Source: a virus (Duplodnaviria; Heunggongvirae; Uroviricota; Caudoviricetes). Taken from it: a DNA stretch of 23,542 nucleotides. The DNA lies in the IMG/VR virus record IMGVR_UViG_643348547_000006; one strand, 5' to 3'. The stretch's first letter is position 1. Each line of letters starts with the position of its first letter. A program made the position numbers and the translations under genes. Under the pieces are notes generated by a model. That model searched no databases, was not told where the DNA came from, and was given only the letters and a program-made list of their open reading frames with translations. Shown one piece after another: positions 4,967 to 23,151 of this stretch.

Positions 4967-5395
4967 CGTTGGCCCCGCTTCTCTGAATCGCTTTATACCG
5001 CCATTCCAGCACTTCGGTCAGCGGCATAACGTCAGTAACGGATGGCGGCCAGTGAAAAATGGTGGCGATATCTGCCACCAGATCGTCAACCGTCAGGCTG
5101 TCGGTAAACCGGCAAGCACCGACTTCTTCAACAAAAAAGTGACAACCTCAACCGACATGGCAGTGAGATCTGCCGGGTCCATCTCTGCAATTTCCTGTGC
5201 AGTCAGTGCCGGACTGGAGATGCGGGGGATCACGGTCATCATCGCGTTTACATCCATATCCATAATGGCCTGCAGGCGTGTACCGCGCAGCGCACCGGAC
5301 TGCGGTTTACGCAGCACAATTTCGGTGATTTCTGTTTTACCGCGCTTGATGGGGGTATCCAGTTGAATGGTCTTTTCAGTCTGCTTATCGCTCAT
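4959..5395 (-). CDS. E+E': Tail assembly chaperone gpE+E' (-1 programmed frameshift product)
   Basis: Slippery heptamer T-TTT-TTG on the minus strand at 5138..5132. Hand translation of the -1 frame from 5132 gives an open extension of about 57 codons (VEEVGACRFTDSLTVDDLVADIATIFHWPPSVTDVMPLTEVLEWRYKAIQRSGANDE) ending at TGA 4959-4961, which overlaps the T start (ATGAGTGA), as in P2. Confidence 0.7.
5093..5395 (-). CDS. E: Tail assembly chaperone gpE
   Basis: 100-aa ORF ending ...VTFLLKKSVLAGLPTA; ATG at 5393-5395 with AGGA upstream; contains the slippery site near its 3' end. Confidence 0.85.
   Translation of the reverse strand: MSDKQTEKTIQLDTPIKRGKTEITEIVLRKPQSGALRGTRLQAIMDMDVNAMMTVIPRISSPALTAQEIAEMDPADLTAMSVEVVTFLLKKSVLAGLPTA
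5132..5138 (-). other. -1 ribosomal frameshift slippery site (TTTTTTG)
   Basis: Plus strand reads caaaaaa at 5132-5138, i.e. TTTTTTG on the coding strand, in frame as T.TTT.TTG within E. Confidence 0.7.
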
Positions 5396-5449
5396 TTTGC
5401 TGTCCTGTCAATTGGGTTCTGGCGCGGTATCCCGCGCCGTTCAGATATA

Positions 5450-5965
5450 TCAGAGGCCGAGGGCGTTGCGGTGCGCTTCCATCAGGTCCACACCGTCCAC
5501 AATTTCCACCATGTTGATAAGGTCCACTTCATAGAGCACCTCACCATTGATGGTCAGCTTCGCGTAGCTGTTGGTACTGGTCACTTTGGTGGTGTTGCTT
5601 TCGCCCGTCTTCCACTCGCCGGAATCCACTTCTTTGTGACGTCCACGCACGACAAGCTCCACGGCCTGCACTTCCCCGGTATCGTCACGCTGAATAGAGC
5701 CGGTAAAGCGCAGCTGGATGCCATCCACCGTGGCTTTACCCATCTGTTTAAACAGCAGCAATTCAGTACCACCAATGGAAAATTCTGTATCCAGCGCACT
5801 GTCATCAAGCCCCAGATCCACATCCACCGCACCCGGCATTCCGCCGCCGCGATACTTCTCATATTTGCGGGTAAATTTCGGCAGCGTCAGCGACTCAACG
5901 ATCCCCTGCCAGTTGTTCCCGTCGTTAAACAGGTTCAGGTGTTTTAATTTGCGTGGTAAAGCCAT
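5450..5965 (-). CDS. FII: Tail tube protein gpFII
   Basis: 171-aa ORF directly downstream of the sheath gene; ATG 5963-5965 with AAGGGGA upstream. Confidence 0.9.
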   Translation of the reverse strand: MALPRKLKHLNLFNDGNNWQGIVESLTLPKFTRKYEKYRGGGMPGAVDVDLGLDDSALDTEFSIGGTELLLFKQMGKATVDGIQLRFTGSIQRDDTGEVQAVELVVRGRHKEVDSGEWKTGESNTTKVTSTNSYAKLTINGEVLYEVDLINMVEIVDGVDLMEAHRNALGL

Positions 5966-5974
5966 GTTGTCCCC

Positions 5975-7147
5975 TTACGCGCTGACCTGGCTGGCGAAAT
6001 TAACCAGGTACTGATCGGTGATGCGCTGACGCAGCATCAGGTTTTCAAGTGGCGGCACTGGCGTGTAGTCGTAGTCGATGGTGAGTTTTCCGGCTTTCAG
6101 CGTGTCTTTGTCGTTCACCGACTCATCCAGCCAGCAATCACCACCAATGAGATAGCCCTGACTGACCAGGCTGCGCATTTTGGCGCGGATACCTTCGATA
6201 ATGTCGCGGGCCAGCGACGGGTTAAGCGGTTTATCCACCGCCCACATGTGTGCTTCTGCCATCGTGTCCATCAGCACCTGCGCCGTGCGGGTGTAGTTTT
6301 CGAAGGCAAAGAGCGGGTCATCACTCAGGCAGCGGGAACCCCAGAAGCGGAAACCGTCTTTACGCACAAGCGTGGTGACGTCGTTCTGGTTCAGCAGACC
6401 TGCATCGGTTGCCGGGTCCTGCAGATCCCAGAACACATCTGCAGAAATTCCGGTGACACCGTTCACGCCCACGTTGGACAGGCTTTTGTGCCATCCGGTC
6501 TGCTCGTCAATTTTGGCGCGCAGACCAAGCGCACGGGCGGTGGCATATGCCGTTGCTTCGGCATTCAGCACCGTGTCCCAGCCAGTAAAGTCAGGCCAGA
6601 TCAGCATCCCTTCGCGCTGGCTGAAGTTTTCGCGGTAAGTGATCGCCTCCTGCACTGTCTTGCAGCCATACGCTGACAGGTAAGCAAATCCACGCAGGCT
6701 TTGCGCCACGCTCAGCAACTCAGTAGCTACCGCCTTGGTGTCGTGGCCTGGCACGCCGAGAATGCGCGGTTTAACGCCGAGCTGTGACTGGGCAGATAAC
6801 AGGGCTTTCATACCTGTTTTTTTACCTTCAGCAGTCACTGCGCCGATGATATTGGTCGTGGTTTCGTCTTCCGTTTCACCCTGCGGCACACGCACAACAA
6901 TGGTCACGGGTTTTGCCTGGTCAGCGATGGCATCCAGCGAACGGGCCAGAGTACCTGACTCACCCGCTTTACCGCTGGCAGTCAGCACATCAGTGATCAG
7001 CACGGGTTTATTAAGAGGAAACATTTTTGCATCGGCATCATCGCCCGTGCAGACCATACCCACGATGGCGGTGCTCACCGTGGTAATAGATCGGGTACCT
7101 TCGTTGACTTCAACAACGCGCACCCCGTGGTGGTAATCCTGAGCCAT
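5975..7147 (-). CDS. FI: Contractile tail sheath protein gpFI
   Basis: 390-aa ORF; ATG 7145-7147 with AGGAGG 8 nt upstream; first gene of the F-E-T-U-D block. Confidence 0.9.
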
Positions 7148-7222
7148 AGTGGCGAACCTCCTGATTGGATTAGGCTTCGCCCTATGTTGAAGTGATTGTG
7201 CCTGACAAACAGCTAAGCGCAG

Positions 7223-7242
7223 TTGTGTCGTTATTCACACAA
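7223..7242 (-). promoter_or_regulatory. Candidate Ogr-dependent late promoter element upstream of FI (TTGTGT-N8-ACACAA dyad)
   Basis: Perfect dyad ttgtgtcgttattcacacaa at 7223-7242, centred about 85 bp upstream of the FI ATG; fits the TGT-N12-ACA motif described for P2 late promoters. Confidence 0.45.
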
Positions 7243-7308
7243 AATAACGGTATTTGTCTGCTTGCAGGGATAATCAACATAATGCTGATTCAGGGGGATT
7301 CATTGATC

Positions 7309-8128
7309 GGCACTGTTGCAAAGTTAGCGATGAGGCAGCCTTTTGTCTTATTCAAAGGCCTTACATTTCAAAAACTCTGCTTACCAGGCGCATTTCGCCC
7401 AGGGGATCACCATAATAAAATGCTGAGGCCTGGCCTTTGCGTAGTGCACGCATCACCTCAATACCTTTGATGGTGGCGTAAGCCGTCTTCATGGATTTAA
7501 ATCCCAGCGTGGCGCCGATTATCCGTTTCAGTTTGCCATGATCGCATTCAATCACGTTGTTCCGGTACTTAATCTGTCGGTGTTCAACGTCAGACGGGCA
7601 CCGGCCTTCGCGTTTGAGCAGAGCAAGCGCGCGACCATAGGCGGGCGCTTTATCCGTGTTGATGAATCGCGGGATCTGCCACTTCTTCACGTTGTTGAGG
7701 ATTTTACCCAGAAACAGGTATGCAGCTTTGCTGTTACGACGGGAGGAGAGATAAAAATCGACAGTGCGGCCCCGGCTGTCGACGGCCCGGTACAGATACG
7801 CCCAGCGGCCATTGACCTTCACGTAGGTTTCATCCATGTGCCACGGGCAAAGATCGGAAGGGTTACGCCAGTACCAGCGCAGCCGTTTTTCCATTTCAGG
7901 CGCATAACGCTGAACCCAGCGGTAAATCGTGGAGTGATCGACATTCACTCCGCGTTCAGCCAGCATCTCCTGCAGCTCACGGTAACTGATGCCGTATTTG
8001 CAGTACCAGCGTACGGCCCACAGAATGATGTCACGCTGAAAATGCCGGCCTTTGAATGGGTTCATGTGCAGCTCCATCAGCAAAAAGGGATGATAAGTTT
8101 ATCACCACCGACTATTTGCAACAGCGCC
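7309..8128 (-). mobile_element. IS26-like (IS6 family) insertion sequence, copy 1, 820 bp, no target-site duplication
   Basis: Terminal 14-bp repeats GGCACTGTTGCAAA (7309-7322) and, on the other strand, GGCGCTGTTGCAAA (8115-8128); encodes the Tnp26-like transposase. Flanking octamers differ (CATTGATC vs AAAAGCGG). Confidence 0.9.
7361..8065 (-). CDS. tnp26: IS26-family DDE transposase
   Basis: 234 aa from MNPFKGRHFQRDIILWAVRWYCKYGISYRELQ..., recalled as Tnp26; ATG at 8063-8065. Translation is identical to the copy-2 transposase. Confidence 0.9.
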   Translation of the reverse strand: MNPFKGRHFQRDIILWAVRWYCKYGISYRELQEMLAERGVNVDHSTIYRWVQRYAPEMEKRLRWYWRNPSDLCPWHMDETYVKVNGRWAYLYRAVDSRGRTVDFYLSSRRNSKAAYLFLGKILNNVKKWQIPRFINTDKAPAYGRALALLKREGRCPSDVEHRQIKYRNNVIECDHGKLKRIIGATLGFKSMKTAYATIKGIEVMRALRKGQASAFYYGDPLGEMRLVSRVFEM

Positions 8129-9277
8129 AAAAGCGGCACCGTTGCATTTCAGCCAGCCTGTTGGCGGAGTGGCTGAAGGCCACGGAACAGGCACCCCAAC
8201 CGGTAATGCAGAGCCTTCTCCCAAACCAAGGTATGTGAGAAGACCAGCTACATCCTTTCCACTCAAATTGGTAAGCGTATTGTCCAGCGGTTGTTTACCT
8301 GCCAGCGCATTAAGCATTGTCGTGGCAAAGTTCGGATCATTCCCCAGTGCCACCGCCAGTTCGTTCAGTGTATCCAGTGCAGCAGGTGCAGAACCCACCA
8401 TTCCTGCAATCGCCGATTTCACAAAAGCCGTAGTGGCAATCTGTGTATTGTTGACCGACTGCGCCGCCGTGGGGGCTGTTGGCGTTCCGGTGAGTGCCGG
8501 ACTCGACAACGGTGCTTTTAGTGCCAGCGCATTGTTAATGGTGGTACTGAAATTCGGATCATTGTTAATGGCTGCGGCTATTTCTTTCAGCGTGTCCAGC
8601 GTGGCTGGCGCACCATTAATAAGGGCCGTCAGTGCCGCCTGTACAAACGCAGTGGTCGCAACCTGCGTGGTATTATTCCCCGCCGCTGGCGTTGGCGCTT
8701 TGGGGGTTCCGGTAAATGTCGGGCTGGCTTTTGGCGCGTACTGTGAATGCGGGTCCGGTGCGGCAAGATGTTTTGCCATCTGATCATCCGCGTACACCTT
8801 CAGCTCCAGTGCCTTGTCATCCACATACTTGCGGGTTGCCAGCACTACAGCAGGGTCGATTTTCAGGGTGATATTGTCCGTGCTGCTGGTAATCAGCACC
8901 ATGCGCACGGTCTGAGTGCGCCCGCTACCTTCAGCCAGTTGCGGCTTATAGCTTTCCGGGCAGTTGCCCACGGCAATCAATGCACCTGACTCATCAAACA
9001 GGCCCACTTCACGTATCCACCAACCGCCCTCGTTTTCAGGGATCACCTGTTCGGCAATAATCTGGCTGCTGTTCTGCGGGTCGATATAAAGCATATTCAG
9101 CGCAGCCCGGCGTTTCTCATTTACCAGTGCCGTCTGCTTTGCGTCCGGCGTTGGCAATACTCCACCGCCATCGCCCACCGCCATATGGGTAATTTTTAGC
9201 GGCACACCGAGCGCGGCGGCGCTGGCAAGTTTCGCCGCGCCAATATCCGTCAGCAGGGTATAAAATTTTGTGCTCAT
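8129..9277 (-). pseudogene. H: Tail fibre protein gpH, 3'-truncated by IS26
   Basis: ORF 8102..9277 has a P2 H-like N-terminus (MSTKF...MAVGDGGG...ESYKPQLAEGSGR...) and reaches ...PVPWPSATPPTGWLKCNGAAF; its last 8 residues (GAVANSRW) and stop are encoded by the IS26 end. About 380 aa remain versus roughly 670 aa in P2 H. Confidence 0.8.
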
Positions 9278-9879
9278 GGATTCACTCTCATTGTGTCAAT
9301 AACATGGACCGCCCCGCCTTCATGCGCGGTGCCACCGGAAATAATCGTTTCGTTGATATACGGATAGATCGTGATTTCTTCGCCAAGATAGCTGGCGGCT
9401 CCCACCCAATGCGGGCCGCTGGTCTGCAGATTGATGGACATGCCGATCATGTGGCGGCTACATGGTTTGGCATCGCTTATCAGTCGCTCAAGTTCCAGAT
9501 AGGTATCTTCAGTGATGCCCTGGTCCTGCACGCCGATATCCAGGCGAAACGTGCCCGGTGTTTCTCCGGTCTGCCACCACTCAATAATGCGGATCAGGAA
9601 TCCGAACGGCTCCACCACCCGCCGCACGGCACTGGTGGTCCCTTTATGCTGATGAATATAAAAAGCATCCTTCACCACCTGGCGCTTGACGCTTTCTGTC
9701 CAGCCCTCGTCCCAGCGATCCACAGAGAACGCCCAGGCGAGATAAGGCAGGAAACTGACCGGACAGGTTGCCGGATTCCACAAATCACGAAGCGGCACCT
9801 GCAGATCAGAAATCCCGCTGCAGGTTTGCGCCAGTCGGCACTCCAGTGGTGTTGAACCCGGTGGCAGCAGACTATTCAT
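9274..9879 (-). CDS. I: Baseplate protein gpI
   Basis: 201-aa ORF; ATG 9877-9879 with GGAGG upstream; overlaps the H start (ATGA); position between J and H matches P2. Confidence 0.8.
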   Translation of the reverse strand: MNSLLPPGSTPLECRLAQTCSGISDLQVPLRDLWNPATCPVSFLPYLAWAFSVDRWDEGWTESVKRQVVKDAFYIHQHKGTTSAVRRVVEPFGFLIRIIEWWQTGETPGTFRLDIGVQDQGITEDTYLELERLISDAKPCSRHMIGMSINLQTSGPHWVGAASYLGEEITIYPYINETIISGGTAHEGGAVHVIDTMRVNP

Positions 9880-10780
9880 CCGTTCCTCCGTTGGTTACGC
9901 TCCACTGCGTACATGATGCCGCCTGTGTTTTGTTCAGGACCACATCCGCCAGAGGAGAAGCCAGCTCCACACGCTGCACCCCCTCAACATGCAGGGCGGC
10001 AAAGATGGCGCTACGGCGAATATCCCGACCAAGACGCGTCTGACTGGCGATGTACTTCTGCAGGCTGGCTTTTGCCGCTGCCATTACCGGCTCTGCTTCC
10101 GGTCCAGGATAGAGAAAAATGGTGGCTTCCACGCGATACGGGATGATTTCTGCGCTGCGAACCGTAAGACGGTCAGCCACCGGGCGGACGTTCTCACTGT
10201 TCAGAGCTTTTTCCACCACGTCCAGCAGGTCTTTTTCTGCAGTTCCATCGCCTTCGCGGCTAAGGACAGTCAGCACCACCTCTGCAGGTGCCGGGCTGGT
10301 TGCACTGGCATCCGCCACCCGACCGTCGGCGCTTCGGGCATGAAATTCATAAGCTGCAGTTGGCCCCGCAACAGAAAGCCCTTCAAAGGCTGCAGGCACA
10401 CGCAGGCGCAACGCTTCATCGCTTTCCATCACAGCTGCAACGGGCGGCACAGCATCATTATCAGCAGGCGTCACCGTCAGGCGTGTCACGTTGTAGTTGG
10501 CAGCGAGCTGGTCAAGATCGCCGCCCATCGCGTAAGCCACCATCACCGCCTGCGCGGCTTCGTTAATGCGCTGGCGCAGAAGCAACTCACGGTAAGCGTT
10601 CTCCTGCAACAATTTAGTGGCGGGTTCAGATTCCAGTTCCAGCGTGCGGATCACTGCTTCCTGCTCATCTTTCGGATGAAGCGCCACAAATTCTGCCTTG
10701 CGTTCGGCAAGCAGCGTCTCAAAGTCCGGCACATCCACAATCTGCGGTGCAGGCAACTGCGAAAGGTCAATCACTGCCAT
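9872..10780 (-). CDS. J: Baseplate protein gpJ
   Basis: Start set at the internal ATG (MAVIDLSQLPAP, 10778-10780) with AGGAG 6 nt upstream; N-terminus resembles P2 J. Confidence 0.85.
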   Translation of the reverse strand: MAVIDLSQLPAPQIVDVPDFETLLAERKAEFVALHPKDEQEAVIRTLELESEPATKLLQENAYRELLLRQRINEAAQAVMVAYAMGGDLDQLAANYNVTRLTVTPADNDAVPPVAAVMESDEALRLRVPAAFEGLSVAGPTAAYEFHARSADGRVADASATSPAPAEVVLTVLSREGDGTAEKDLLDVVEKALNSENVRPVADRLTVRSAEIIPYRVEATIFLYPGPEAEPVMAAAKASLQKYIASQTRLGRDIRRSAIFAALHVEGVQRVELASPLADVVLNKTQAASCTQWSVTNGGTDE

Positions 10781-11126
10781 TCTCTGCTCCTGTTGATACG
10801 GAAAGGGACACAGGCACACCGTTATTCCGCCGCCCGGTCAGCTCCACCACCATTGAACCGTCAAAATTGCTGTTGATGGTGATGGAATCCAGCGTCAACC
10901 GTGGCTCCCAGCGACTCAGCGCCACATACACTGCCGACATGACCTGCAGGCGTAATGCCGGATTTTGTGGCTGATCTATCAGTGCCGACAGCAGGGAACC
11001 ATATTCCCGGCGGGCAATACGGCTACCCTGCGGTGTCAGCAGAATGTCCCGCACCGACTGGCGCAGATGATCAATATCAGTAATGACTTTGCCGCTGGTA
11101 TTGTTCATCCCGCTATAAAGCGTCAT
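10767..11126 (-). CDS. W: Baseplate protein gpW
   Basis: 119-aa ORF between V and J; ATG 11124-11126 overlaps the V stop. Confidence 0.8.
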   Translation of the reverse strand: MTLYSGMNNTSGKVITDIDHLRQSVRDILLTPQGSRIARREYGSLLSALIDQPQNPALRLQVMSAVYVALSRWEPRLTLDSITINSNFDGSMVVELTGRRNNGVPVSLSVSTGAENGSD

Positions 11127-11701
11127 ACCGGGCCTCCGGTTGTATCGCCGCCTTTCAGGACGCCAGTATGCTGATGCGCATCAACCACGATCCCGTTAGA
11201 ACTCATCGCTCCGCCGCCCTGGGTAACGCCACCATTGATCACCACTTCGCTGTTAATGCGCGTGCGGTCAGCCTCCAGTACAAACTCACTGGTTTTCATG
11301 GTGATGTTGTCAGCAGCCTCAATGACCATTGATTTGATGCCCCTGACATACCAGCGCCCGGTGGCGGGTTCGTATTCAAACCAGCCACCGTCAGGATGTT
11401 CTGTCACGCAGGCGTCCGCCGACGTCGACGGTGGTGCGAACTGATTCGAATAGACAGCGGGCAGCGCAAAGGCGGTTTCCAGATTGCCGCCCAGACTCAG
11501 CAGCACCACCTGCTCACCTTCCGATGGTCGCCACCATGTACGGGCATTCCCGGCACGCAGCGTCAGCCAGCTGATCCAGTTGGTTTCAAGCTCGCCCGTT
11601 TTCACCCGGCAAAGCCAGTTTTCCCTGTCCACTTCGGTGACTACCCCTGTGCGGATCAGGTTGGTGATAAGGCGCATGATTTCGGTTAATTGTGCGTTCA
11701 T
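11123..11701 (-). CDS. V: Baseplate spike/hub protein gpV
   Basis: 192-aa ORF; strong resemblance to recalled P2 V (N-terminal IRTG..TE.D, C-terminal HxH...GGxTxGP). Confidence 0.85.
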   Translation of the reverse strand: MNAQLTEIMRLITNLIRTGVVTEVDRENWLCRVKTGELETNWISWLTLRAGNARTWWRPSEGEQVVLLSLGGNLETAFALPAVYSNQFAPPSTSADACVTEHPDGGWFEYEPATGRWYVRGIKSMVIEAADNITMKTSEFVLEADRTRINSEVVINGGVTQGGGAMSSNGIVVDAHQHTGVLKGGDTTGGPV

Positions 11702-11746
11702 AGGGAAAGGTTGCCATCAGGGGAAGAAAGGCGGCAGTGCTGCAAC

Positions 11747-11766
11747 TTGTATCAGTGCTGATACAA
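11747..11766 (-). promoter_or_regulatory. Palindrome TTGTATCAG-TG-CTGATACAA in the S-V intergenic region (candidate Ogr site or hairpin)
   Basis: Perfect 9-bp inverted repeat with 2-nt spacer at 11747-11766; also fits TTGT-N12-ACAA; centred 55 bp upstream of the V ATG. Confidence 0.35.
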
Positions 11767-11769
11767 AGA

Positions 11770-12216
11770 TCACCCCGCCAGCCATTGCAGAATCATGTCG
11801 CGGGTCATTGCCTCAACATCATCATTTACACCCAGAAGGCGACGCTCTGCGTAACGCACCTCCGGTCCCTTACGACTGACGCGATCTCGCAGGCCGTAAT
11901 GGTGAACGCGGGCAATGCGCTGCACCTTGCCTTCAAACTGCACGCTGGCAGAGTCGGCGCTGGCGGAAGTTTTCAGGTATTTTGTGGTGCGCAGCTTTGC
12001 AAACATCTGACGTTTGATACGGCCTTTTTTACTGCGTGCTGTTACCCGTCGCGGTTCATAACTGCTGCCATCTGGATTGCGCTGCATTCTGATATTTTGC
12101 TGCTGTGTCCGGCGTAGTTCCTGCGCCAGCTGGCGCATCATGCGGCTTCTTGCGGCTGGCTCCAGATTCGCCAGCAAGGCACTCAGCCAGTCGTCCACTT
12201 TCTGCAGTTCAGCCAC
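11770..12216 (-). CDS. S: Tail completion protein gpS
   Basis: 148-aa ORF (AELQKVDDWLSALLANLEP...) resembling P2 S; the ORF's first codon is GTG (12214-12216); exact start uncertain. Confidence 0.75.
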   Translation of the reverse strand: MAELQKVDDWLSALLANLEPAARSRMMRQLAQELRRTQQQNIRMQRNPDGSSYEPRRVTARSKKGRIKRQMFAKLRTTKYLKTSASADSASVQFEGKVQRIARVHHYGLRDRVSRKGPEVRYAERRLLGVNDDVEAMTRDMILQWLAG

Positions 12217-12640
12217 GTTTCACCGTCCACATTTCTTCAGGTTCATCAGGTTCCGCTATAGCTTCAACGCTCGACACACTGCCGTCAGTGCTGACCAGCA
12301 CACGCTCCGTCAGTTGCAGGTTGAGGCTGATATCACAGACATCGTTGCGCAGAATATCCACCTCAAAGGTGAATAGCTTTTCCCGTAACGCCGGGTTATT
12401 GATGGCATCGGGCTGGTTATCACGCAGCCACAGCAAAACCGGGGCCATCAGCAGATTCTGGTCGCCGCTGAAATCCTCAATCACCACGTTCAGGGTGTAG
12501 CGGTACTCCCATGACATGGAGCTGGCCCCCGTGGCAACCAGCGAACCGTTATCCACAAACAGATGCAGTTTGTCCGGGTTATTGCGGACATAAGGCACCG
12601 CTTTATTGAGGGCGTGGCGCAGGGATTGTGGTTTGTTCAC
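12209..12640 (-). CDS. R: Tail completion protein gpR
   Basis: ORF 12209..12661 begins with TTG; a GTG at 12638-12640 preceded by AGGAG 8 nt upstream gives an N-terminus (M)NKPQSLRHAL similar to P2 R (MLKPDSLRRAL). Confidence 0.7.
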   Translation of the reverse strand: MNKPQSLRHALNKAVPYVRNNPDKLHLFVDNGSLVATGASSMSWEYRYTLNVVIEDFSGDQNLLMAPVLLWLRDNQPDAINNPALREKLFTFEVDILRNDVCDISLNLQLTERVLVSTDGSVSSVEAIAEPDEPEEMWTVKRG

Positions 12641-12893
12641 TGTTTCGCTCCTGACACGCAATAATCATGTCCACTTTGTCTGCACAGACCGCCCAGGCGG
12701 CCTCCGTTTCATCCAGCAACGCATTCAGATCACCGTTAGTGCGCGGTGCTGCCTGCTCCAGCCGACACGGCGTCACTCGCGGACAACCACTGACGGTAAG
12801 CTGCACCTCCGGTGAGTGCCGGACGTTCCCGCAGCCGGATAATGTCAGCAGGCAAAGGAGTATCAGCCCAGTGGCGTAAATCCTCGTTCTCAC
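12603..12893 (-). CDS. lysC: Outer-membrane spanin lipoprotein (LysC/Rz1-like)
   Basis: 96-aa ORF with a signal peptide and lipobox (LLCLLTLSGC) and a Pro-rich C-terminus; starts inside lysB in another frame and extends into R, as P2 lysC does; GTG start with GAGGA upstream. Confidence 0.7.
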   Translation of the reverse strand: MRTRIYATGLILLCLLTLSGCGNVRHSPEVQLTVSGCPRVTPCRLEQAAPRTNGDLNALLDETEAAWAVCADKVDMIIACQERNSEQTTIPAPRPQ

Positions 12894-13164
12894 GTTTCAG
12901 TTCCTCGATCCGGCGTTGTCGTTGTCTCAGCTGTGCGCTGGTCTGTTCTGCTTCGGCATAGAGCCGCGCCTGCTCCCGGTTATTGGTTTCAGTCAGAATG
13001 GACAGGCTGATAAGCTGGCTGTTGCTCTTTGCCAGTGCCTGGCTTTTGCTCTGCAGCTCGTTTGCCTGCGTGCTGATGGTCTGGCTGGCATCAGCCAGCC
13101 GCCACGTCTGCCAGCCCAGCGCCGCTAGTAATAACGCCAGCACAACCAGCAGCAACCGGTTCAT
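12736..13164 (-). CDS. lysB: Inner-membrane spanin (LysB/Rz-like)
   Basis: 142-aa ORF with an N-terminal transmembrane segment (LLLVVLALLLAALGW) followed by a charged coiled-coil-like region; ATG 13162-13164. Confidence 0.75.
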   Translation of the reverse strand: MNRLLLVVLALLLAALGWQTWRLADASQTISTQANELQSKSQALAKSNSQLISLSILTETNNREQARLYAEAEQTSAQLRQRQRRIEELKRENEDLRHWADTPLPADIIRLRERPALTGGAAYRQWLSASDAVSAGAGSTAH

Positions 13165-13538
13165 GCTGCTACCTGTTGCGCCATCTGATTACGGGTGATC
13201 CAGAAGGCAATAACGGTCAGTAGATAAAAGACCAGGGTAATAGCCCACCCCGTCCATGCGAGACTTACAACAATCAGCAATCGCATCACCCAACTGATAA
13301 ATACGTTTTCTTTTCGGGTAATTGTCTTCAGCAAAGATGCCCTTAACTCCTGCCAGAGCGGGCCATTCTGAATTAACGCAGCCAGTGCTACCGGAATTAC
13401 CGCCCATGTCAGCAAACAGGCTACCCAAACGCCGGACGCTGCCAGTACCGGAAAGATCCCCTGCGGATACACCATTGCTGCGATTAACAGCGCCATCCAT
13501 AACATCAGAAACAGTCCGCTGATTAATTTCTTTTTCAT
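13161..13538 (-). CDS. lysA: LysA-like multi-pass membrane lysis-timing protein
   Basis: ORF 13161..13610 begins with GTG; the ATG at 13536-13538 (MKKKLISGLF...) with GGGAG upstream gives a 125-aa protein with 3-4 hydrophobic segments. Start choice uncertain. Confidence 0.6.
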   Translation of the reverse strand: MKKKLISGLFLMLWMALLIAAMVYPQGIFPVLAASGVWVACLLTWAVIPVALAALIQNGPLWQELRASLLKTITRKENVFISWVMRLLIVVSLAWTGWAITLVFYLLTVIAFWITRNQMAQQVAA

Positions 13539-13539
13539 T

Positions 13540-14052
13540 TCAGTTTGCTCCCTGTAAACACCAGGCCATCTCCCGCGCACGGCGGTTATCCAGCCCCTGA
13601 TTAAACACACCTTTTACATAAACCCAGCGCGGCAACTGTCGGCACGCATCCGCCCAGCGCCGCTGATTGAGCAATTTCACCAGCGTGGAGCTGCAGGCAT
13701 TGCCTGTCCCCACGTTGAAGGCAAACGACACCACCGAGTCATACACCTTTTGTGGCGGCTGTTGCTTCACACATCTTTCCAGCGCCCGCTCCACACGCAG
13801 CACGTTGGAGATAAGCCCTTCTGCTGCCTGTCGTTCCGTAATGGTTTTGCCGGGAATGACGCCCGACGTATTACCAATGCCGTCAGTCCATACACCCGCG
13901 CTGCACTGATAGGGCTGCAGACGACAGCCTTCGTAATCGGCAATCAGTTTCAGTCCCTCCACGGAGGTGTGAAGCTGCTGAAAACCCGGCAGCGTGGCAG
14001 CAATAGCCAGCACGGTCCCGACAAGGCAGCGTTTAACGATTGATGGATTCAT
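13540..14052 (-). CDS. K: SAR-endolysin-type lysozyme (GH24, P1 Lyz-like)
   Basis: 170 aa; N-terminal hydrophobic signal-anchor-release-like segment containing a Cys (KRCLVGTVLAIAATLPG), then EGCRLQPYQCSAGVWTDGIGNT, which closely matches the P1 Lyz active-site region as I recall it; ATG with GGGAGG upstream. Confidence 0.8.
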   Translation of the reverse strand: MNPSIVKRCLVGTVLAIAATLPGFQQLHTSVEGLKLIADYEGCRLQPYQCSAGVWTDGIGNTSGVIPGKTITERQAAEGLISNVLRVERALERCVKQQPPQKVYDSVVSFAFNVGTGNACSSTLVKLLNQRRWADACRQLPRWVYVKGVFNQGLDNRRAREMAWCLQGAN

Positions 14053-14248
14053 AGTCCTCCCGCGAGATCTGCCCGTCGCGCAGAAGCTGGTAGGCTTTGT
14101 GTTTGTAGTACCAGTTGATAGCCAGCATCAGCACACCAATCATCAGGCCGCCCAGCGTTGAGGCATCCTTGATGGACAAATCGCCCAGCCAGACCAGCAC
14201 AACGGCGATGCAGTACGTGATAAAGGCGCTGATTCGCTCAAGCGTCAT
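14033..14248 (-). CDS. Y: Holin (class II / pinholin-like, two transmembrane segments)
   Basis: 71 aa with two hydrophobic segments and a charged C-terminus; sits immediately upstream of the endolysin and overlaps it by 20 nt. Confidence 0.65.
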   Translation of the reverse strand: MTLERISAFITYCIAVVLVWLGDLSIKDASTLGGLMIGVLMLAINWYYKHKAYQLLRDGQISREDYESINR

Positions 14249-14251
14249 AAT

Positions 14252-14455
14252 TCAGTCCCATAGCTGGACGGTCTGCACGGTGGTGGTTGTCGGAATGTCC
14301 GGCAGCTCCACCTGCAGCCCGTGAGGTAAAAAGGGGCCATATTCGGCAAGCCCCGGATTTGCCTTCAGTACCTGCTCCGTGACACCCTGCGTGCGCCCGT
14401 AATGACGCCAGCAAAGCGCGTCCACCGTGTCATACTGATGCGCACGCACTTTCAT
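14252..14455 (-). CDS. X: Tail protein gpX
   Basis: 67-aa ORF, same size and position as P2 X; ATG overlaps the L stop (ATGA). Confidence 0.7.
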   Translation of the reverse strand: MKVRAHQYDTVDALCWRHYGRTQGVTEQVLKANPGLAEYGPFLPHGLQVELPDIPTTTTVQTVQLWD

Positions 14456-14919
14456 CAGATAAGCTCCACTGTGCAGTGCGGCGCGTCCTGTACCCGGCTG
14501 ATGGCCCAGCGGGCGTCACGCCATAAATCACCGCTGGCTTCCGCCAGTTCCTCGCCCCGCTTCACACCGGATGCCGTGGCGTCATAGTCCTGGTAACGTT
14601 CGTTGAGCATGGCGCGTGCCCAGCAGTAAACCGCGTTGAAATAGTGCTGAATGCGCTCACTTTTGCCGTCCAGCTGTTCCGCCGGAACCTCTGCCAGCGA
14701 GGCATACCCCAGCATCTGCTGGCATCTGCGAAACTCATACAGCTCTGCGTTGACCTCCGAAATTGCCGACAGCGCAACCTGCTTTAAACGCGGCTGCGTC
14801 ACCGTACCGTCAGTGCGCATCACACTGCGGAACTCCGACAGATCCACATCAGGCCAGAACGGCGTATTCCTGATGATTTCCGCCTGTTCCGGTGCCTGTT
14901 CTGGCGCAACAAACTTCAT
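14455..14919 (-). CDS. L: Head completion/stabilisation protein gpL
   Basis: ORF 14455..14982 begins with GTG; the ATG at 14917-14919 (MKFVAPEQ...) has AGGAGA 8 nt upstream. Internal region (IRNTPFWPDVD..., ELWRD.RWA) resembles P2 L. Confidence 0.8.
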   Translation of the reverse strand: MKFVAPEQAPEQAEIIRNTPFWPDVDLSEFRSVMRTDGTVTQPRLKQVALSAISEVNAELYEFRRCQQMLGYASLAEVPAEQLDGKSERIQHYFNAVYCWARAMLNERYQDYDATASGVKRGEELAEASGDLWRDARWAISRVQDAPHCTVELI

Positions 14920-15014
14920 GCTGCTTTCTCCTGAGATAGAGGGCGGTGGACGGGGTTTTGATGTGGCAGTGCCTTTCGCCACCCCGTGCCGCCCGTGCGC
15001 GGGGGCACGTTCTG

Positions 15015-15665
15015 TCAGCGGCTGTCATTGCGCAGTCTGCGCTCCAGCTGCTGTTTGTCTTTTTTCACGCCACAGCGGGGATCGAGCTGTAACGCATGGT
15101 TGAGATGATTAAGGGCGGAAGCCGGATTACTTTCACTCAGGACAGCGCCAATCGCTTTATGCAGACGCGCCCGTGACTGGTCCGGCATGTCCAGACCGTC
15201 TGTCAGCTCCAGCGTCTGCAGCAACAGATCGACATCAAAGCCGGTAGTGGCAAGCATTGCGCTCTGTGCCGCGTCTGCCATTTCCTCTGCCAGCACGGTT
15301 TGCACATTGCGGTTACCCAGCGGCATCACCCAGCCATGACGCAGGGCATGACGCCCGATCTCCAGCGCCCCGGCATAATCTCCGGCATCAATGCGCCACA
15401 GCATCACGTACATCAGCACGTCATCCTGTTGAGCGCCTCCGGCAGCCAGAACACCCTCTGCCCAGGCGGCGTATTTCGGCAGCAGCTCCACCTTGATTTC
15501 CGCTTTTTTGACCGTGGACTGAACGCCCTTGAGACGGCGGCGATCTTCCGCCAGTTGCAGCAGCATCAGGTCATAGCCCGACGCGTGGCGAACGCTGCCG
15601 CCCTCACGGGCGGCCTGTTCAGCCTGAACGCGCAGGCGATGCTGCCGTGCGGGACTCAGGCTCAT
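15015..15665 (-). CDS. M: Terminase small (endonuclease) subunit gpM
   Basis: 216 aa; N-terminal and central similarity to recalled P2 M (QDD.LM.VMLWR.D.GD.AGALEI...); ATG 15663-15665. Confidence 0.8.
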   Translation of the reverse strand: MSLSPARQHRLRVQAEQAAREGGSVRHASGYDLMLLQLAEDRRRLKGVQSTVKKAEIKVELLPKYAAWAEGVLAAGGAQQDDVLMYVMLWRIDAGDYAGALEIGRHALRHGWVMPLGNRNVQTVLAEEMADAAQSAMLATTGFDVDLLLQTLELTDGLDMPDQSRARLHKAIGAVLSESNPASALNHLNHALQLDPRCGVKKDKQQLERRLRNDSR

Positions 15666-15668
15666 GAA

Positions 15669-16727
15669 TTACGCTCCGGTTTCTGCTGCGGCGGCGCTAA
15701 AATCGCCAATCTGGATGTTTTCCACCAGTGCAGCGCAGCGGTAGTCCTCAACCACATAGGCTTCGTTAACGGATTCAAAGTTTTCAATCCGGTCACGTTT
15801 CGGGTTGTCGATAACTGAACGGCGGCGGGTGTCTTCCTGCCAGTAAATGGACAGGTTATCCAGACGGGTGATCAGCAGTGCATTCGGCGGGAAGAACGGC
15901 GCACGCACGGCCTGCAGGCCACCCATGCGTTTCTGACTGATGATCATATCGGCAGCCAGTTTTTCACTGTTTTCCTGCTCTTTGTTGACCAGCGGGAAAT
16001 ACTTGTCAGACAGCAGTTCACGACCGCAAATCACCACCAGATCGTCATCGTCCTGGTAGACCACGTCGATAAGCTCATTGACGGCATCCATCACCACAGC
16101 GTCCAGGTTGGCATATTCGCCACCTTTACCGACTTTCACCGCGCCCGGTGTGGTTTCACCGCCCGTGGTGGTGCTGCCCATAACGTGATCCGGTGCATCC
16201 TCACGGATTTTCTGCAGCCAGCCTTTGTTCACATCCTGCAGCAGCGGGTTTTCACTACGGTTGGAGGTTTTCGCACGCTTCACGCCGTTAAAGCCGATCA
16301 TGATGCGGTCCAGTGCCTGACGTTTCACGATGGCGTCACGGATACGCACCTGGAAATCCTGAAACTTCGCCCACAGGTCCAGCTTCGCGTAGGTCAGTAC
16401 CGTGTCAAAGTTGGTCTGCTCGCATTTATATTCCACATCGACCATCAGCGTCGGATCGACAGGTTCACGCTCTTTCGCGGTGGTATCAGTGGTTCCGGCA
16501 ATGGTGCTGCCAACTCCCAACCCCAGCAGCTGACCGGACTGCTCAGTCACTGGCGTGACGTTAATCAGCGTCAGGAAAGCGGCGGACTGCTGGATCTGGT
16601 CTTCCAATGTCTGCTGCACGGACGGCTCTACGGTGAACTTGCTGGACAGTTCTTCAACTGCCACACCGTTCAGACGCGCCAGTTGCTGCAGATAAGCGTT
16701 AAAAGCAAAGCGGGTATTCTTCTTCAT
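15669..16727 (-). CDS. N: Major capsid protein gpN
   Basis: 352-aa ORF between O and M; ATG 16725-16727; size and position match P2 N. Confidence 0.9.
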   Translation of the reverse strand: MKKNTRFAFNAYLQQLARLNGVAVEELSSKFTVEPSVQQTLEDQIQQSAAFLTLINVTPVTEQSGQLLGLGVGSTIAGTTDTTAKEREPVDPTLMVDVEYKCEQTNFDTVLTYAKLDLWAKFQDFQVRIRDAIVKRQALDRIMIGFNGVKRAKTSNRSENPLLQDVNKGWLQKIREDAPDHVMGSTTTGGETTPGAVKVGKGGEYANLDAVVMDAVNELIDVVYQDDDDLVVICGRELLSDKYFPLVNKEQENSEKLAADMIISQKRMGGLQAVRAPFFPPNALLITRLDNLSIYWQEDTRRRSVIDNPKRDRIENFESVNEAYVVEDYRCAALVENIQIGDFSAAAAETGA

Positions 16728-16743
16728 CAGGTTTTGTGCTCCA

Positions 16744-17577
16744 TCAGCAATTGGTCAGAGTGTCAGCGGGGGCGTTACCGCCTGTTGCACGCTGGCGGTA
16801 GTCCTGGCGGCTGTCTTCATGGCTCAGCTTGTCCACCAGTTCGTTAAAGGCGGTCTGCTGTGCCTGCAGGGCAGTCTCCAGCTCAGACAGGCGTTCTTCC
16901 TGCTCAGACAGGGATTTTTCGGTGCGCGCACTCAGGTTCTGCTGCTCAGTGGCGACCAGTTCCACGGCCTTATGCACATCAGAGAACCGGGCGTCATCGG
17001 ACTGCTCTTTTTTGGTGAACAGCGCCGTGACACGGGCAAACAGGGACGGTTTGTCATCCTGGATTTCTTCCAGTTCGATCACCGTTTCCTCTGCAGCGGT
17101 AAAAAGATTGGCGGGATTCTGCTTGCGGTTTGCCAGCGGGTTATGGGCTGCACTGGCGCTGAATGTCAGCATTTCAGTGCCCAGACTGGCAGGGTCATCA
17201 GTGGCAGCCAGGCCGACCAGGTAGGCTTTGCCCGTATCAGCGAACTTCGGGCTAACTTCCATAGATGTGAATAATTTCTGGCCTTTTTTCACCAGTTCCA
17301 CCAGGGACTCCGTTGGCTCAACGTCGGCATACAGCGCCATCTTGCCTGCCAGCGGACCTTCCTTGATTTCTTCAGCAAACAGCGCCGTCACCTTGCCGTA
17401 GCGGTTAAAGGTGCTGTCCGGCAGATAAGACTTGATGTGCTCAAGGTTAATCAGCGCGGTATACACCGCCGGGTTGTAGCTGGCTGCCATCTGTTCCAGC
17501 CATTCACGCTGGATTTCGCGTCCGTCGGTGGTGGCACCTTCCACCCCGATGCGAAAACGCTTTGCTTTCACTGTCAT
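16744..17577 (-). CDS. O: Capsid scaffolding protein gpO
   Basis: 277 aa; close to recalled P2 O (FRIGVEG...DGR.I......YNP.VY...INLEH...YLVGLA.TDDPASLGTE...ATGG..AD.L.NC). Confidence 0.85.
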   Translation of the reverse strand: MTVKAKRFRIGVEGATTDGREIQREWLEQMAASYNPAVYTALINLEHIKSYLPDSTFNRYGKVTALFAEEIKEGPLAGKMALYADVEPTESLVELVKKGQKLFTSMEVSPKFADTGKAYLVGLAATDDPASLGTEMLTFSASAAHNPLANRKQNPANLFTAAEETVIELEEIQDDKPSLFARVTALFTKKEQSDDARFSDVHKAVELVATEQQNLSARTEKSLSEQEERLSELETALQAQQTAFNELVDKLSHEDSRQDYRQRATGGNAPADTLTNC

Positions 17578-17654
17578 GAGCCGTGCTCCGTTAGAAAAAA
17601 CTTACTGGAGCCTTATGGTTGCGGTGATGGGGGCAGTGAAACAATGCGCGGTAT

Positions 17655-17674
17655 TTGTACCGACAACCACACAA
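17655..17674. promoter_or_regulatory. Candidate Ogr-binding dyad (TTGT-N12-ACAA) in the divergent P/O promoter region
   Basis: ttgtaccgacaaccacacaa at 17655-17674, centred about 87 bp upstream of the O ATG and 55 bp upstream of the P ATG. Confidence 0.45.
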
Positions 17675-17719
17675 ACCGCAGGCGGGGAAAGCCTTCATTC
17701 AAGGTTGTAGGTTTGTGCC

Positions 17720-18826
17720 ATGAACACCACACTGACACCCGCAGATCTCGATCCCCGTCGGCAGGCCATGCTGCTGTACTTTCAGGGATACCGCGTAGCC
17801 CGCATTGCTGAAATGCTGGGCGAGAAAGTTGCAACCGTTCACAGCTGGAAAAAACGCGACAAGTGGGGTGACTATGGGCCGCTGGATCAGATGCAGCTCA
17901 CCACCGCCGCACGCTACTGCCAGCTCATCATGAAGGAGCACAAAGAAGGGAAAGATTTCAAAGAGATTGACCTGCTGGCGCGCCAGTCGGAGCGCCACGC
18001 GCGGATCGGCAAGTTTAACAATGGCGGCAACGAAGCCGACTTAAACCCTAACGTCGCCAACCGCAATAAAGGCCCACGCCGTCAGCCGGAAAAGAATGTT
18101 TTCACCGATGAGCAGATTGAGAAGCTGGAAGAAATCTTCCATTCCTCCATGTTCAACTACCAGCGCCACTGGTGGGAAGCCGGAAAAACCAACCGCATCC
18201 GCAACCTGCTGAAGTCACGCCAGATCGGCGCGACCTTTTACTTTGCCCGTGAAGCCCTGATTGACGCCCTGCTTACCGGACGTAACCAGATTTTCCTTTC
18301 CGCCAGCAAGGCACAGGCCCACGTCTTTAAGCAGTACATCATCGACTTCGCCAAAGAAGTGGGGGTGGAGTTGAAAGGCGATCCGATGGTGCTTCCTAAC
18401 GGGGCCACGCTTTACTTCCTCGGCACCAATGCCCGCACGGCCCAGAGTTATCACGGCAACCTGTATCTGGATGAATATTTCTGGATACCGAAATTCCAGG
18501 AGCTGCGCAAAGTGGCTTCCGGTATGGCTATTCACAAAAAATGGCGACAAACCTATTTTTCCACGCCATCCAGCCTGACACACAGTGCTTATCCGTTCTG
18601 GTCCGGTGCGCTGTTCAACCGTGGGCGCAACAAGGCCGACAAGGTGGACATCGACCTGTCCCACAGCAATCTGGCCCCCGGCCTGCTGTGCGCAGACGGG
18701 CAATACCGCCAGATAGTCACCGTGGAAGATGCGGTGCGCGGCGGCTGTAACCTGTTCGACCTTGACCAGTTGCGCATGGAGTACAGCCCGGACGAATACC
18801 AGAACCTGCTGATGTGCGAGTTTGTG
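17720..18826 (+). pseudogene. P: Terminase large (ATPase) subunit gpP, 5' portion, interrupted by IS26
   Basis: ORF 17720..18853 reads about 369 codons of P and then 8 IS-encoded codons (GAVANSRW) before a stop inside the IS26 end. Confidence 0.85.
18819..18826. repeat. 8-bp target-site duplication AGTTTGTG (left copy) of IS26 copy 2
   Basis: Identical octamer immediately flanks both ends of the 820-bp element. Confidence 0.85.
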
Positions 18827-19646
18827 GGCGCTGTTGCAAATAGTCGGTGGTGATAAACTTATCATCCCTTTTTGCTGATGGAGCTGCACATGAACCCATT
18901 CAAAGGCCGGCATTTTCAGCGTGACATCATTCTGTGGGCCGTACGCTGGTACTGCAAATACGGCATCAGTTACCGTGAGCTGCAGGAGATGCTGGCTGAA
19001 CGCGGAGTGAATGTCGATCACTCCACGATTTACCGCTGGGTTCAGCGTTATGCGCCTGAAATGGAAAAACGGCTGCGCTGGTACTGGCGTAACCCTTCCG
19101 ATCTTTGCCCGTGGCACATGGATGAAACCTACGTGAAGGTCAATGGCCGCTGGGCGTATCTGTACCGGGCCGTCGACAGCCGGGGCCGCACTGTCGATTT
19201 TTATCTCTCCTCCCGTCGTAACAGCAAAGCTGCATACCTGTTTCTGGGTAAAATCCTCAACAACGTGAAGAAGTGGCAGATCCCGCGATTCATCAACACG
19301 GATAAAGCGCCCGCCTATGGTCGCGCGCTTGCTCTGCTCAAACGCGAAGGCCGGTGCCCGTCTGACGTTGAACACCGACAGATTAAGTACCGGAACAACG
19401 TGATTGAATGCGATCATGGCAAACTGAAACGGATAATCGGCGCCACGCTGGGATTTAAATCCATGAAGACGGCTTACGCCACCATCAAAGGTATTGAGGT
19501 GATGCGTGCACTACGCAAAGGCCAGGCCTCAGCATTTTATTATGGTGATCCCCTGGGCGAAATGCGCCTGGTAAGCAGAGTTTTTGAAATGTAAGGCCTT
19601 TGAATAAGACAAAAGGCTGCCTCATCGCTAACTTTGCAACAGTGCC
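18827..19646 (+). mobile_element. IS26-like (IS6 family) insertion sequence, copy 2, 820 bp, with 8-bp target-site duplication
   Basis: Ends GGCGCTGTTGCAAA (18827-18840) and TTTGCAACAGTGCC (19633-19646). Transposase and antisense-ORF translations are identical to copy 1 up to the element boundary. Confidence 0.9.
18890..19594 (+). CDS. tnp26: IS26-family DDE transposase
   Basis: 234 aa from ATG 18890-18892; identical translation to copy 1. Confidence 0.9.
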   Translation: MNPFKGRHFQRDIILWAVRWYCKYGISYRELQEMLAERGVNVDHSTIYRWVQRYAPEMEKRLRWYWRNPSDLCPWHMDETYVKVNGRWAYLYRAVDSRGRTVDFYLSSRRNSKAAYLFLGKILNNVKKWQIPRFINTDKAPAYGRALALLKREGRCPSDVEHRQIKYRNNVIECDHGKLKRIIGATLGFKSMKTAYATIKGIEVMRALRKGQASAFYYGDPLGEMRLVSRVFEM

Positions 19647-19654
19647 AGTTTGTG
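19647..19654. repeat. 8-bp target-site duplication AGTTTGTG (right copy) of IS26 copy 2
   Basis: Matches 18819-18826 exactly. Confidence 0.85.
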
Positions 19655-20314
19655 GACGATCTCGCGTCCGTATTTCCGCTCAGCGAGCTGCAGGCGTGCA
19701 TGGTGGACAGCTGGGAAGTCTGGACCGACTTTCATGCACTGGCTCTGCGCCCGTTTGGCTGGCGCGAAGTGTGGATCGGTTATGACCCGGCAAAAGGTAC
19801 GCAAAACGGCGACAGCGCCGGATGCGTGGTGGTGGCACCGCCAGCCGTGCCTGGTGGTAAGTTCCGCATTCTTGAGCGTCACCAGTGGCGCGGGATGGAC
19901 TTCCGCGCCCAGGCTGACGCCATCAAAAAACTGACCGAACAGTACAACGTGACCTATATCGGTATCGACTCAACCGGCGTTGGTCACGGGGTTTATGAGA
20001 ACGTGAAAGCGTTCTTTCCTGCCGTCCGGGAGTTTGTCTACAACCCCAATGTTAAAAACGCCCTGGTACTCAAGGCCTACGACATTATCAGCCACCGCCG
20101 TCTGGAGTTTGACGCCGGGCACACCGACATTGCGCAGTCATTTATGGCAATCCGTCGCGCTACCACTGCCAGTGGCAACCGCCCGACCTATGAAGCCAGC
20201 CGCAGCGAAGAAGCCAGCCATGCCGATCTGGCCTGGGCAACAATGCACGCACTGTTTAACGAACCGCTGCAGGGCGAGTCCGCCAATACCAGCAATATTG
20301 TGGAGATTTTTTGA
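19647..20314 (+). pseudogene. P: Terminase large subunit gpP, 3' portion
   Basis: Removing the IS and one duplication copy restores a continuous frame ...LLMCEFVDDLASVFPLSELQ...; stop TGA at 20312-20314 overlaps the Q ATG. Confidence 0.85.
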
Positions 20315-21477: not shown

Positions 21478-21804
21478 ATGACTAAAAATACTCGTTTTTC
21501 CCCCGAAGTCCGTCAACGGGCAGTCCGTATGGTTCTGGAAAGTCAGAGCGAATATGACTCACAATGGGCGACAATTTGTTCCATTGCTCCAAAGATTGGC
21601 TGTACGCCGGAGACTCTGCGTGTCTGGGTTCGCCAGCATGAGCGGGATACCGGGGGCGGTGATGGAGGGCTCACCACCGCTGAACGTCAGCGTCTGAAAG
21701 AGCTGGAACGTGAAAATCGTGAACTGCGCCGCAGTAACGATATCCTTCGCCAGGCTTCCGCTTATTTTGCGAAGGCGGAGTTCGACCGCCTCTGGAAAAA
21801 ATGA
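21478..21804 (+). CDS. IS3-family transposase OrfA (helix-turn-helix / leucine-zipper subunit)
   Basis: 108 aa, [23 protein letters not shown]...; recalled as IS629/IS1203 OrfA. Confidence 0.85.
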
Positions 21805-22691
21805 TGCCACTGCTGGATAAGCTGCGTGAGCAGTACGGGGTCGGACCGCTATGCAGCGAACTGCATATTGCCCCGTCAACGTATTACCACTGTCAGCAAC
21901 AGCGACATCATCCGGATAAACGCAGTGCCCGTGCGCAGCGCGATGACTGGCTGAAGAAAGAGATACAGCGCGTATACGATGAAAATCACAAGGTATACGG
22001 TGTGCGTAAAGTCTGGCGTCAGTTGTTACGGGAAGGTATCAGAGTGGCCAGATGCACTGTGGCACGTCTCATGGCGGTTATGGGACTTGCCGGTGTTCTC
22101 CGGGGTAAAAAGGTCCGTACGACCATCAGCCGGAAAGCCGTTGCCGCAGGCGACCGCGTAAACCGTCAGTTCGTGGCAGAACGACCTGACCAGCTGTGGG
22201 TGGCTGATTTTACTTACGTCAGCACATGGCGGGGCTTCGTCTATGTGGCGTTCATCATTGATGTGTTTGCCGGATACATCGTGGGGTGGCGGGTCTCATC
22301 GTCCATGGAAACGACATTCGTGCTGGATGCACTGGAGCAGGCGTTATGGGCCCGTCGACCGTCCGGCACGGTCCATCACAGTGATAAAGGTTCTCAGTAT
22401 GTATCGCTGGCCTACACACAGCGGCTTAAGGAAGCCGGATTACTGGCATCAACAGGAAGTACAGGCGACTCGTATGACAACGCGATGGCGGAGAGCATCA
22501 ATGGTCTTTACAAAGCGGAGGTAATACACCGTAAGAGCTGGAAAAACCGTGCAGAAGTGGAACTGGCCACACTCACGTGGGTGGACTGGTATAACAATCG
22601 ACGATTGCTGGAAAGGCTGGGCCATACTCCTCCGGCAGAAGCAGAAAAAGCTTATTATGCTTCCATCGGAAACGATGATCTGGCAGCCTGA
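21801..22691 (+). CDS. IS3-family transposase OrfB (DDE catalytic domain); OrfAB fusion predicted by -1 frameshift
   Basis: 296-aa ORF in the -1 frame relative to orfA, overlapping at the A-run GGAAAAAATGA; contains DDE-type motifs ([15 protein letters not shown]). Confidence 0.85.
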
Positions 22692-22733
22692 GTTCACAGA
22701 TAAAACACTCTCCAGGAAACCCGGGGCGGTTCA

Positions 22734-23133: not shown

Positions 23134-23151
23134 TAACCACCACTGACCACC

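Follow-up and report, generated by a model that had tools for sequence, protein, structure and literature searches.

The IS26 copy that lies between the tail-fibre gene H and the tail sheath gene FI of this P2-like prophage remnant marks a deletion, in which a predicted host-range switching module and the distal end of H were lost. The missing DNA amounts to 2,379 bp, a figure counted relative to the prophage of Escherichia coli strain CE10, with cassettes that vary among relatives. We consider it reasonably likely that a single IS26 insertion was followed by an intramolecular replicative (cis) deletion.

The window (the whole stretch of DNA analysed, 23,542 nucleotides of IMG/VR record IMGVR_UViG_643348547_000006) comprises the late genes of a P2-like prophage remnant of E. 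coli, as judged from its ORF map and Pfam matches. The minus strand carries D, U, T, E, FII and FI up to position 7147 and H, I, J, W, V onward to O from 9277 to about 17577, and the plus strand carries P and Q. This is the late-cluster order of P2-like phages (Peduoviridae), Q, P / O N M L X ... V W J I H / FI FII E T U D. The assignment draws on the ORF map, on Pfam searches of the window and of Logan proteins, on the CE10 annotation and on the P2 record. The FI product matches the Pfam families Phage_sheath_1, Phage_sheath_1C and Gp18_domIII_N. The features on which the analysis turns are given below, with positions in the CE10 locus (L001) where they correspond.

5975 to 7147, minus strand: FI (tail sheath) gene, intact, a 390-aa ORF collinear with the CE10 tail sheath gene.
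7148 to 7289, minus strand: FI upstream region (late promoter PF), intact and 100% identical to CE10.
7290 to 7308, minus strand: invertase gene remnant, the last 19 bp (five codons and the stop codon, ...INESP), equal to L001 6603-6621.
7309 to 8128, minus strand: IS26 copy 1, 820 bp, with tnp26 at 7361-8065.
8129 to 9277, minus strand: truncated H, 383 of 516 codons, with an ORF that runs eight codons into the IS, to 8102.
8129 to 8215, minus strand: first 87 bp (29 codons) of the invertible variable part of H, 100% identical to L001 9001-9087.
8216 to 8241, no strand assigned: orphan 26-bp crossover site, TTCTCCCAAACCAAGGTATGTGAGAA, within H codons 346-354 (LLTYLGLGE).
18827 to 19646, plus strand: IS26 copy 2, the exact reverse complement of copy 1, a simple insertion in the terminase gene P.

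When the H fragment was compared by megablast with 5,426 complete E. coli genomes, the top match was the chromosome of E. coli O7:K1 CE10 (99.9%). Window and CE10 are collinear throughout the matched parts at 99.9-100% identity, and because the whole window is collinear at 99.95-100%, CE10 serves well as a stand-in for the pre-deletion state. The CE10 prophage is already a remnant itself, with an IS3-family element after Q, which is also present in the window, and with replication and early genes absent. It keeps a further 4,076 bp (cII', the CI repressor, ISEc53, a clbS-like gene and the 5' part of int) that the right end of the window lacks.

Both flanks of copy 1 match CE10 to the last base. 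Window positions 5000-7308 correspond to L001 4313-6621 with one mismatch and positions 8129-11000 to L001 9001-11872 with two, i.e. 99.93-99.96% identity over 2.3-2.9 kb. The DNA between, L001 6622-9000, has no counterpart in the window, and it is this comparison with a P2-like relative intact at the locus that defines the loss of 2,379 bp on the CE10 count. The proposal of an earlier sequence-only reading that copy 1 marks a deletion is thus upheld. The octamers flanking copy 1 are unlike, CATTGATC (7301-7308) and AAAAGCGG (8129-8136), and when they were re-examined the reported lack of a target-site duplication was seen again. The IRR end of the element adjoins the invertase remnant and its IRL end adjoins H; the FI-side junction reads GGGGGATTCATTGATC joined to GGCACTGTTGCAAAG. 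The exact junction pattern had no match in a one-genome-per-species contig set, and the deletion structure was found in none of the complete E. coli genomes searched.

The CE10 annotation, Pfam and a search of solved structures agree on the content of the missing stretch, which for the ancestor of the window itself is known directly for 87 bp. Nearly all of a Gin/Cin/Pin-type DNA invertase gene was lost with one of its two crossover sites, and so were an alternative gp53-like fibre tip, two tail-fibre assembly genes and the last 133 residues of H. The CE10 invertase (annotated as a recombinase family protein, CDS at L001 6603-7169) is a 188-aa serine recombinase with Pfam Resolvase (2.2e-53) and HTH_7 (1.4e-15) domains, and it aligns to Mu Gin over 184 residues (E=3e-93; PDB 3UJ3). 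Two 26-bp crossover sites, at L001 7225-7250 and 9088-9113, form the best inverted repeat of the region and enclose a segment of 1,837 bp. The stretch of CE10 that is missing from the window contains an outward-facing gp53-like fibre tip fragment and two Caudo_TAP tail-fibre assembly (chaperone) genes in opposite orientation. Two hallmarks of an invertible switch are present in CE10, a serine recombinase with an HTH domain and inverted 26-bp sites bounding alternative tips and chaperones. From its sequence, we predict that the region is a host-range switch of the classic Gin/Cin/Pin-type architecture.

Only the 19-bp gene stub and one crossover site are present in the window. The orphan site equals L001 9088-9113, and both its inverted partner and the invertase are deleted. 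One endpoint of the deletion leaves 19 bp of the invertase gene at its 3' end; the other lies 87 bp inside the invertible segment, as follows from the retention of the first 87 bp of the variable part. Similarity to P2 H ends at 8216, exactly at the orphan site. Homology between CE10 and its close relative RM10809-3 breaks at both crossover sites, as expected where cassettes are exchanged. Among relatives the switch has been lost by other routes too: the invertase gene is cleanly deleted in EcE.CRE.COL, and in EC15 and EC18 a canonical IS26 interrupts a different P2-like H.

The first inventory of the loss named the fibre receptor domain, gene G and the Z/fun accessory locus. The distal domain of the fibre and an assembly (G-equivalent) function are indeed gone, but the Z/fun locus has to be struck from the list. 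P2 Fun(Z) gave no tblastn match (E<=1e-3) in the window or in 40 kb of CE10, and P2 G gave none in the window or in the intact CE10 relative. In CE10, 142 bp separate the invertase gene from the FI start codon, and this gap holds no cargo gene. Since no Fun(Z) or G homologue was found and the invertase sits so close to FI, Z/fun was not what was lost. Relocation of the deleted genes within the window was likewise rejected, because blastn and tblastn matched neither the missing DNA nor its proteins elsewhere in it; the H C-terminus and G-type genes, which might have been sought at another position, are absent from the window.

The reading frame of H enters the IRL end of copy 1 and specifies a product of 391 aa, 383 of them from H. 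H is thus cut after residue 383 and ends in the IS-encoded residues GAVANSRW, in agreement with the first description. Intact H has 516 aa, with the Pfam family Phage_tail_fib spanning residues 1-150 and Collar residues 361-408, and only profile positions 1-25 of the 57 in Collar are left. The cut had been placed at the start of a distal domain; it does fall in the distal part, inside the Collar domain. Among 900 records covering at least 80% of the H fragment, none had an H that ends naturally at residue 383, and in the close relatives with intact H (CE10, FDAARGOS_1287 and EcE.CRE.COL) the protein is 516-519 aa long. The predicted outcome is a fibre stump with an eight-residue IS tail, for which receptor-binding tips would be neither made nor switched.

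These observations also bear on whether anything was deleted at all. H could be naturally short and G and accessory genes naturally absent, with IS26 merely inserted between H and FI, and the H-FI interval is highly variable among relatives. This is almost certainly wrong, however: copy 1 has no duplication, H is cut in the middle of Collar with its stop codon supplied by the IS, a 19-bp invertase stub is left behind, and relatives with 99-100% identity continue through both breakpoints.

On the other side of copy 1, the 161 bp upstream of FI are 100% identical to CE10. A perfect TGT-N12-ACA dyad is located at 7224-7241, with its centre about 86 bp from the FI start codon, and from what is known of P2 late promoters we take it to be a putative Ogr-type activator site. 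The P2 record has an annotated activator site about 83 bp from the FI start. The FI upstream region aligns poorly with P2 pF, so the integrity of the promoter is judged from the identity to CE10 and the retained dyad, and on both counts the promoter region is intact, as the sequence-only reading had it. A sigma-70 consensus scan of the region was uninformative, which is expected for an activator-dependent late promoter.

Both IS copies are 820 bp long and carry the 14-bp terminal inverted repeats of IS26. The IRR is canonical (GGCACTGTTGCAAA) and the IRL (GGCGCTGTTGCAAA) matches at 13 of 14 positions. Compared with the canonical IS26 of pEK499, there are three differences, namely A>G at position 4 (in the IRL), C>T at 43 and G>T at 413, the last of which changes Tnp26 by R117L. 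Tnp26 is encoded by a 234-aa ORF with a Pfam DDE_Tnp_IS240 match (E=1.5e-47, obtained on copy 2; the copies are identical), and matching database records annotate the transposase as IS26 family. The 8-bp duplication typical of IS26 is found at copy 2, and its lack at copy 1 was not counted against membership, since it is expected after a later deletion. The tail GAVANSRW needs the A>G change in the IRL; the canonical sequence would give GTVANSRW. No entry matching R117L is present in the IS6-family review. The identical variant is carried by pCE10A, the IncF plasmid of CE10, and by several F plasmids of about 85-125 kb. A CE10-like strain may plausibly have received its chromosomal element from such a plasmid.

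Copy 2 is bracketed by a perfect 8-bp duplication, AGTTTGTG (18819-18826 and 19647-19654). Removal of the IS and one copy of the duplication restores a 588-aa P (terminase large subunit; 17720-18826 plus 19655-20314). P is therefore not a truncated fragment, as it had been called, but a gene interrupted by a simple insertion, without deletion. Its N-terminal part does acquire the same GAVANSRW tail as H, as described, because each of the two genes runs into this end of the IS in the same frame. With two hits, the shared tail is about a one-in-six coincidence and has no meaning.

The same 391-aa H::IS26 fusion protein is found in Logan assemblies, here called L003 and L004. In L003 (SRR30348991 and three further samples), P is interrupted, and the sequence matches window positions 8099-18856 at 100% identity, stopping 30 bp into either IS. 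L004 (SRR13992328 and one further sample) shares the H::IS26 junction, but its P is intact at 588 aa, and it has a 3-kb deletion of its own from lysA to J. Because the H::IS26 junction occurs with an intact P in L004, the H junction predates the insertion in P. The Logan contigs stop about 30 bp into the IS, and the junction that they show is the H-side one and not the FI-side one.

We also weighed an assembly artefact, in which junctions of different IS26 copies were joined and the DNA between them (e.g. a plasmid segment or a resistance region) was collapsed. IS26 is a classic cause of such collapse, the short-read Logan contigs break off within the IS, and the same variant resides on plasmids of related strains. 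Still, the two full-length, identical IS26 copies in the window and its IS3-family element are bordered on every side by unique sequence, as is usual in finished or long-read assemblies, and even if the artefact were real, the 2,379 bp of phage DNA (by comparison with CE10) would be absent between the junctions. We therefore regard this explanation as very improbable.

The structure at copy 1 conforms to a cis deletion: one IS with unrelated flanks is contiguous with CE10 on both sides, and the interval between is missing. The signatures of cis and trans intramolecular transposition of IS26 were set out by He et al. (2015, mBio; PMC4471558). After a trans attack, the segment is inverted, two inverted copies result and the duplication is split between them (PMC4471558). 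We rejected such an inversion between the oppositely oriented copies of the window, as copy 2 has its own direct duplication and the gene order is that of CE10; the flanks of copies 1 and 2 are not reverse complements of each other.

In the scenario that we favour, the three-SNP IS26 variant, of the type found on ExPEC F plasmids such as pCE10A, would have entered the prophage at one of two places, the 3' end of the invertase gene or a point in H 87 bp into its invertible part. The element would then have transposed replicatively, intramolecularly and in cis, into the other of these sites, with loss of the interval. Later, and in the lineage of the window only, a second copy of the same variant landed in P, probably via a cointegrate and its resolution, which leaves a normal duplication.

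The same product would arise if IS26 had inserted twice, independently and with like orientation, at the 3' end of the invertase gene and in H, or if an IS26-flanked cointegrate or translocatable unit had integrated there, and RecA-dependent or Tnp26-mediated recombination had then removed the interval with one IS. This yields the observed structure exactly, with the unlike octamers as halves of former duplications. According to two papers (PMC4676283, PMC4894685), IS26 preferentially targets existing IS26 copies and excises translocatable units, and copy 2 shows that this lineage tolerates repeated IS26 hits in the prophage. The route needs more steps, however: two insertions within 2.4 kb in the same orientation, cointegrate resolutions and a recombination, and the only other copy in the window is oppositely oriented. 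The single-insertion intermediates are predicted to read IRL end followed by CATTGATCTTATTTGCC and ...CAGCAGAAAAAGCGG followed by GGCACTGTTGC. With both synthetic single-insertion junctions as queries, no intermediate was found in 5,426 complete E. coli genomes, which is a point against both routes alike. The only full-coverage junction matches, EC15 and EC18, were set aside: each has an unrelated canonical IS26 that cuts a different P2-like H and joins it to rhaS'. We judge the two-copy route possible but rather unlikely, and prefer the cis deletion because it takes the fewest steps. The adjacent deletion suggested by the sequence-only reading thus stands as the most economical mechanism, although not as the only one with this product, since two-copy recombination would leave the same sequence.

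The structure resembles the IS26 cis deletions of He et al. 2015 (PMC4471558) in its single IS26 with unrelated 8-bp flanks, in the partial gene at the junction, in the DNA missing relative to a 'before' genome and in the presence of a second copy with a normal 8-bp duplication. Unlike those cases, it lies in a chromosomal prophage remnant rather than on a resistance plasmid, there is no resistance gene, and the element is a three-SNP variant, its terminal repeats agreeing at 13 of 14 positions.

The intact CE10 region is similar to the Gin/Cin/Pin/Hin systems, such as the Mu G segment, the P1 C segment and the e14 P segment. As in these, a serine invertase adjoins the segment, 26-bp inverted sites are located in the fibre gene at the boundary of its constant and variable parts, and there are two alternative tips, each with its own chaperone. 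Invertible loci were demonstrated in P2-like prophages of EPEC (Goldberg et al. 2014, PMC4272514). The window differs from these switches in that the system is destroyed: what is left is a 19-bp piece of the invertase gene, a single crossover site and 87 bp of one variable part.

The gene order I-H ... FI-FII-E-T-U-D is shared with P2 (AF063097), and so is an activator-type dyad, with similar spacing from FI. Up to the crossover site, the H of the window shows about 50% identity to residues 1-364 of P2 H. Unlike P2, this lineage has no detectable Fun(Z) or G homologue, and where P2 lacks an invertase it carries an invertase cassette in the H-FI interval.

A far-reaching scenario can be imagined, but we think it very doubtful and give it hardly any weight. 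Instead of neutral decay, a distinct and still-active IS26 sublineage with the imperfect IRL and R117L, resident on ExPEC F virulence plasmids, might be colonising the chromosome, and knock-outs of the fibre switch and the terminase might have been selected, for instance to disarm a costly tail or lysis module, as the tail and lysis genes of this remnant are still complete. The orphan site might in addition serve as a substrate for the invertases of other prophages and drive large inter-prophage inversions, as hinted in FDAARGOS_1287.

IS26-driven decay of an already defective prophage is a known and routine phenomenon, and the importance of this case beyond bookkeeping is small. The prophage was already defective in CE10, so a phenotypic consequence is unlikely. 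The analysis corrects the annotation, in that the prophage lost a host-range switching module and not Z/fun, and CE10 and the window show a chromosomal IS26 deletion cleanly in its before and after states. Both junctions and the insertion in P are exact markers of the clone, and the order in which these events took place is resolved. We interpret the IS26 events as late episodes in the erosion of a dead prophage by insertion sequences.

Both IS26 copies in the window (7309-8128 and 18827-19646) are a three-SNP variant, with A>G at position 4 of IRL, C>T at position 43 and R117L in Tnp26. Because of the change at IRL position 4, the terminal repeats of this variant match at 13/14. The variant still transposed, as the duplication flanking the second copy, inside P, reveals. 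Identical copies are carried by pCE10A, the IncF plasmid of E. coli O7:K1 CE10, whose prophage is the closest intact relative, and by several ExPEC F plasmids.

The module from the tail-fibre gene H to the sheath gene FI is mosaic across close relatives, as seen when RM10809-3 and EcE.CRE.COL were compared with positions 6300-9400 of the CE10 prophage locus. RM10809-3 has sequence in common with CE10 only outside both crossover sites of the invertible cassette, with a different cassette between them. In EcE.CRE.COL the invertase gene is precisely missing (CE10 locus 6589-7217), leaving a 'frozen' fibre.

Rearranged or interrupted fibre genes were also found in other genomes. In FDAARGOS_1287 (NZ_CP070071.1, 6984-10149), the invertible cassette marks a join between a P2-like H/tfaE and the tail-fibre end of a different prophage. 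The latter is of the Mu or e14 type, with baseplate J, YmfQ and partial stfP. An invertase seems to have rearranged the two prophages with each other here. In EC15 (NZ_CP060919.1, 6642-8760), the H of another P2-like prophage is cut by a canonical IS26 at a position unlike that in the window and joined via IS26 to a truncated rhaS, and the invertase cassette is intact. IS26 has here struck a P2-like fibre gene independently of the event in the window.

The assembly SRR13992328 represents a sister lineage that shares the H::IS26 junction of the window. It has lost 3 kb running from lysA into J (corresponding to window 10225-13244), with microhomology of about 12 bp flanking the deletion, and it retains an intact terminase gene P. 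Within gene R, CE10 carries an 81-bp in-frame tandem duplication at the place of window 12319-12399, where the window has the single-copy form; R is 170 aa long in CE10, and 143 aa in the other relatives as in the window.

An IS3-family element lies 3' of Q, in the same place as in CE10:

21478-22734 and 22732-23542, IS3-family element and its right-hand side
orfA of this element, 108 aa, HTH_Tnp_1
orfB of this element, 296 aa, rve

Immediately at its right end, 4,076 bp of CE10 are absent from the window. In CE10 this stretch contains cII', the CI repressor, ISEc53, a clbS-like gene and the 5' part of int. The loss is a second IS-adjacent deletion within the same prophage, and it takes away the immunity region.
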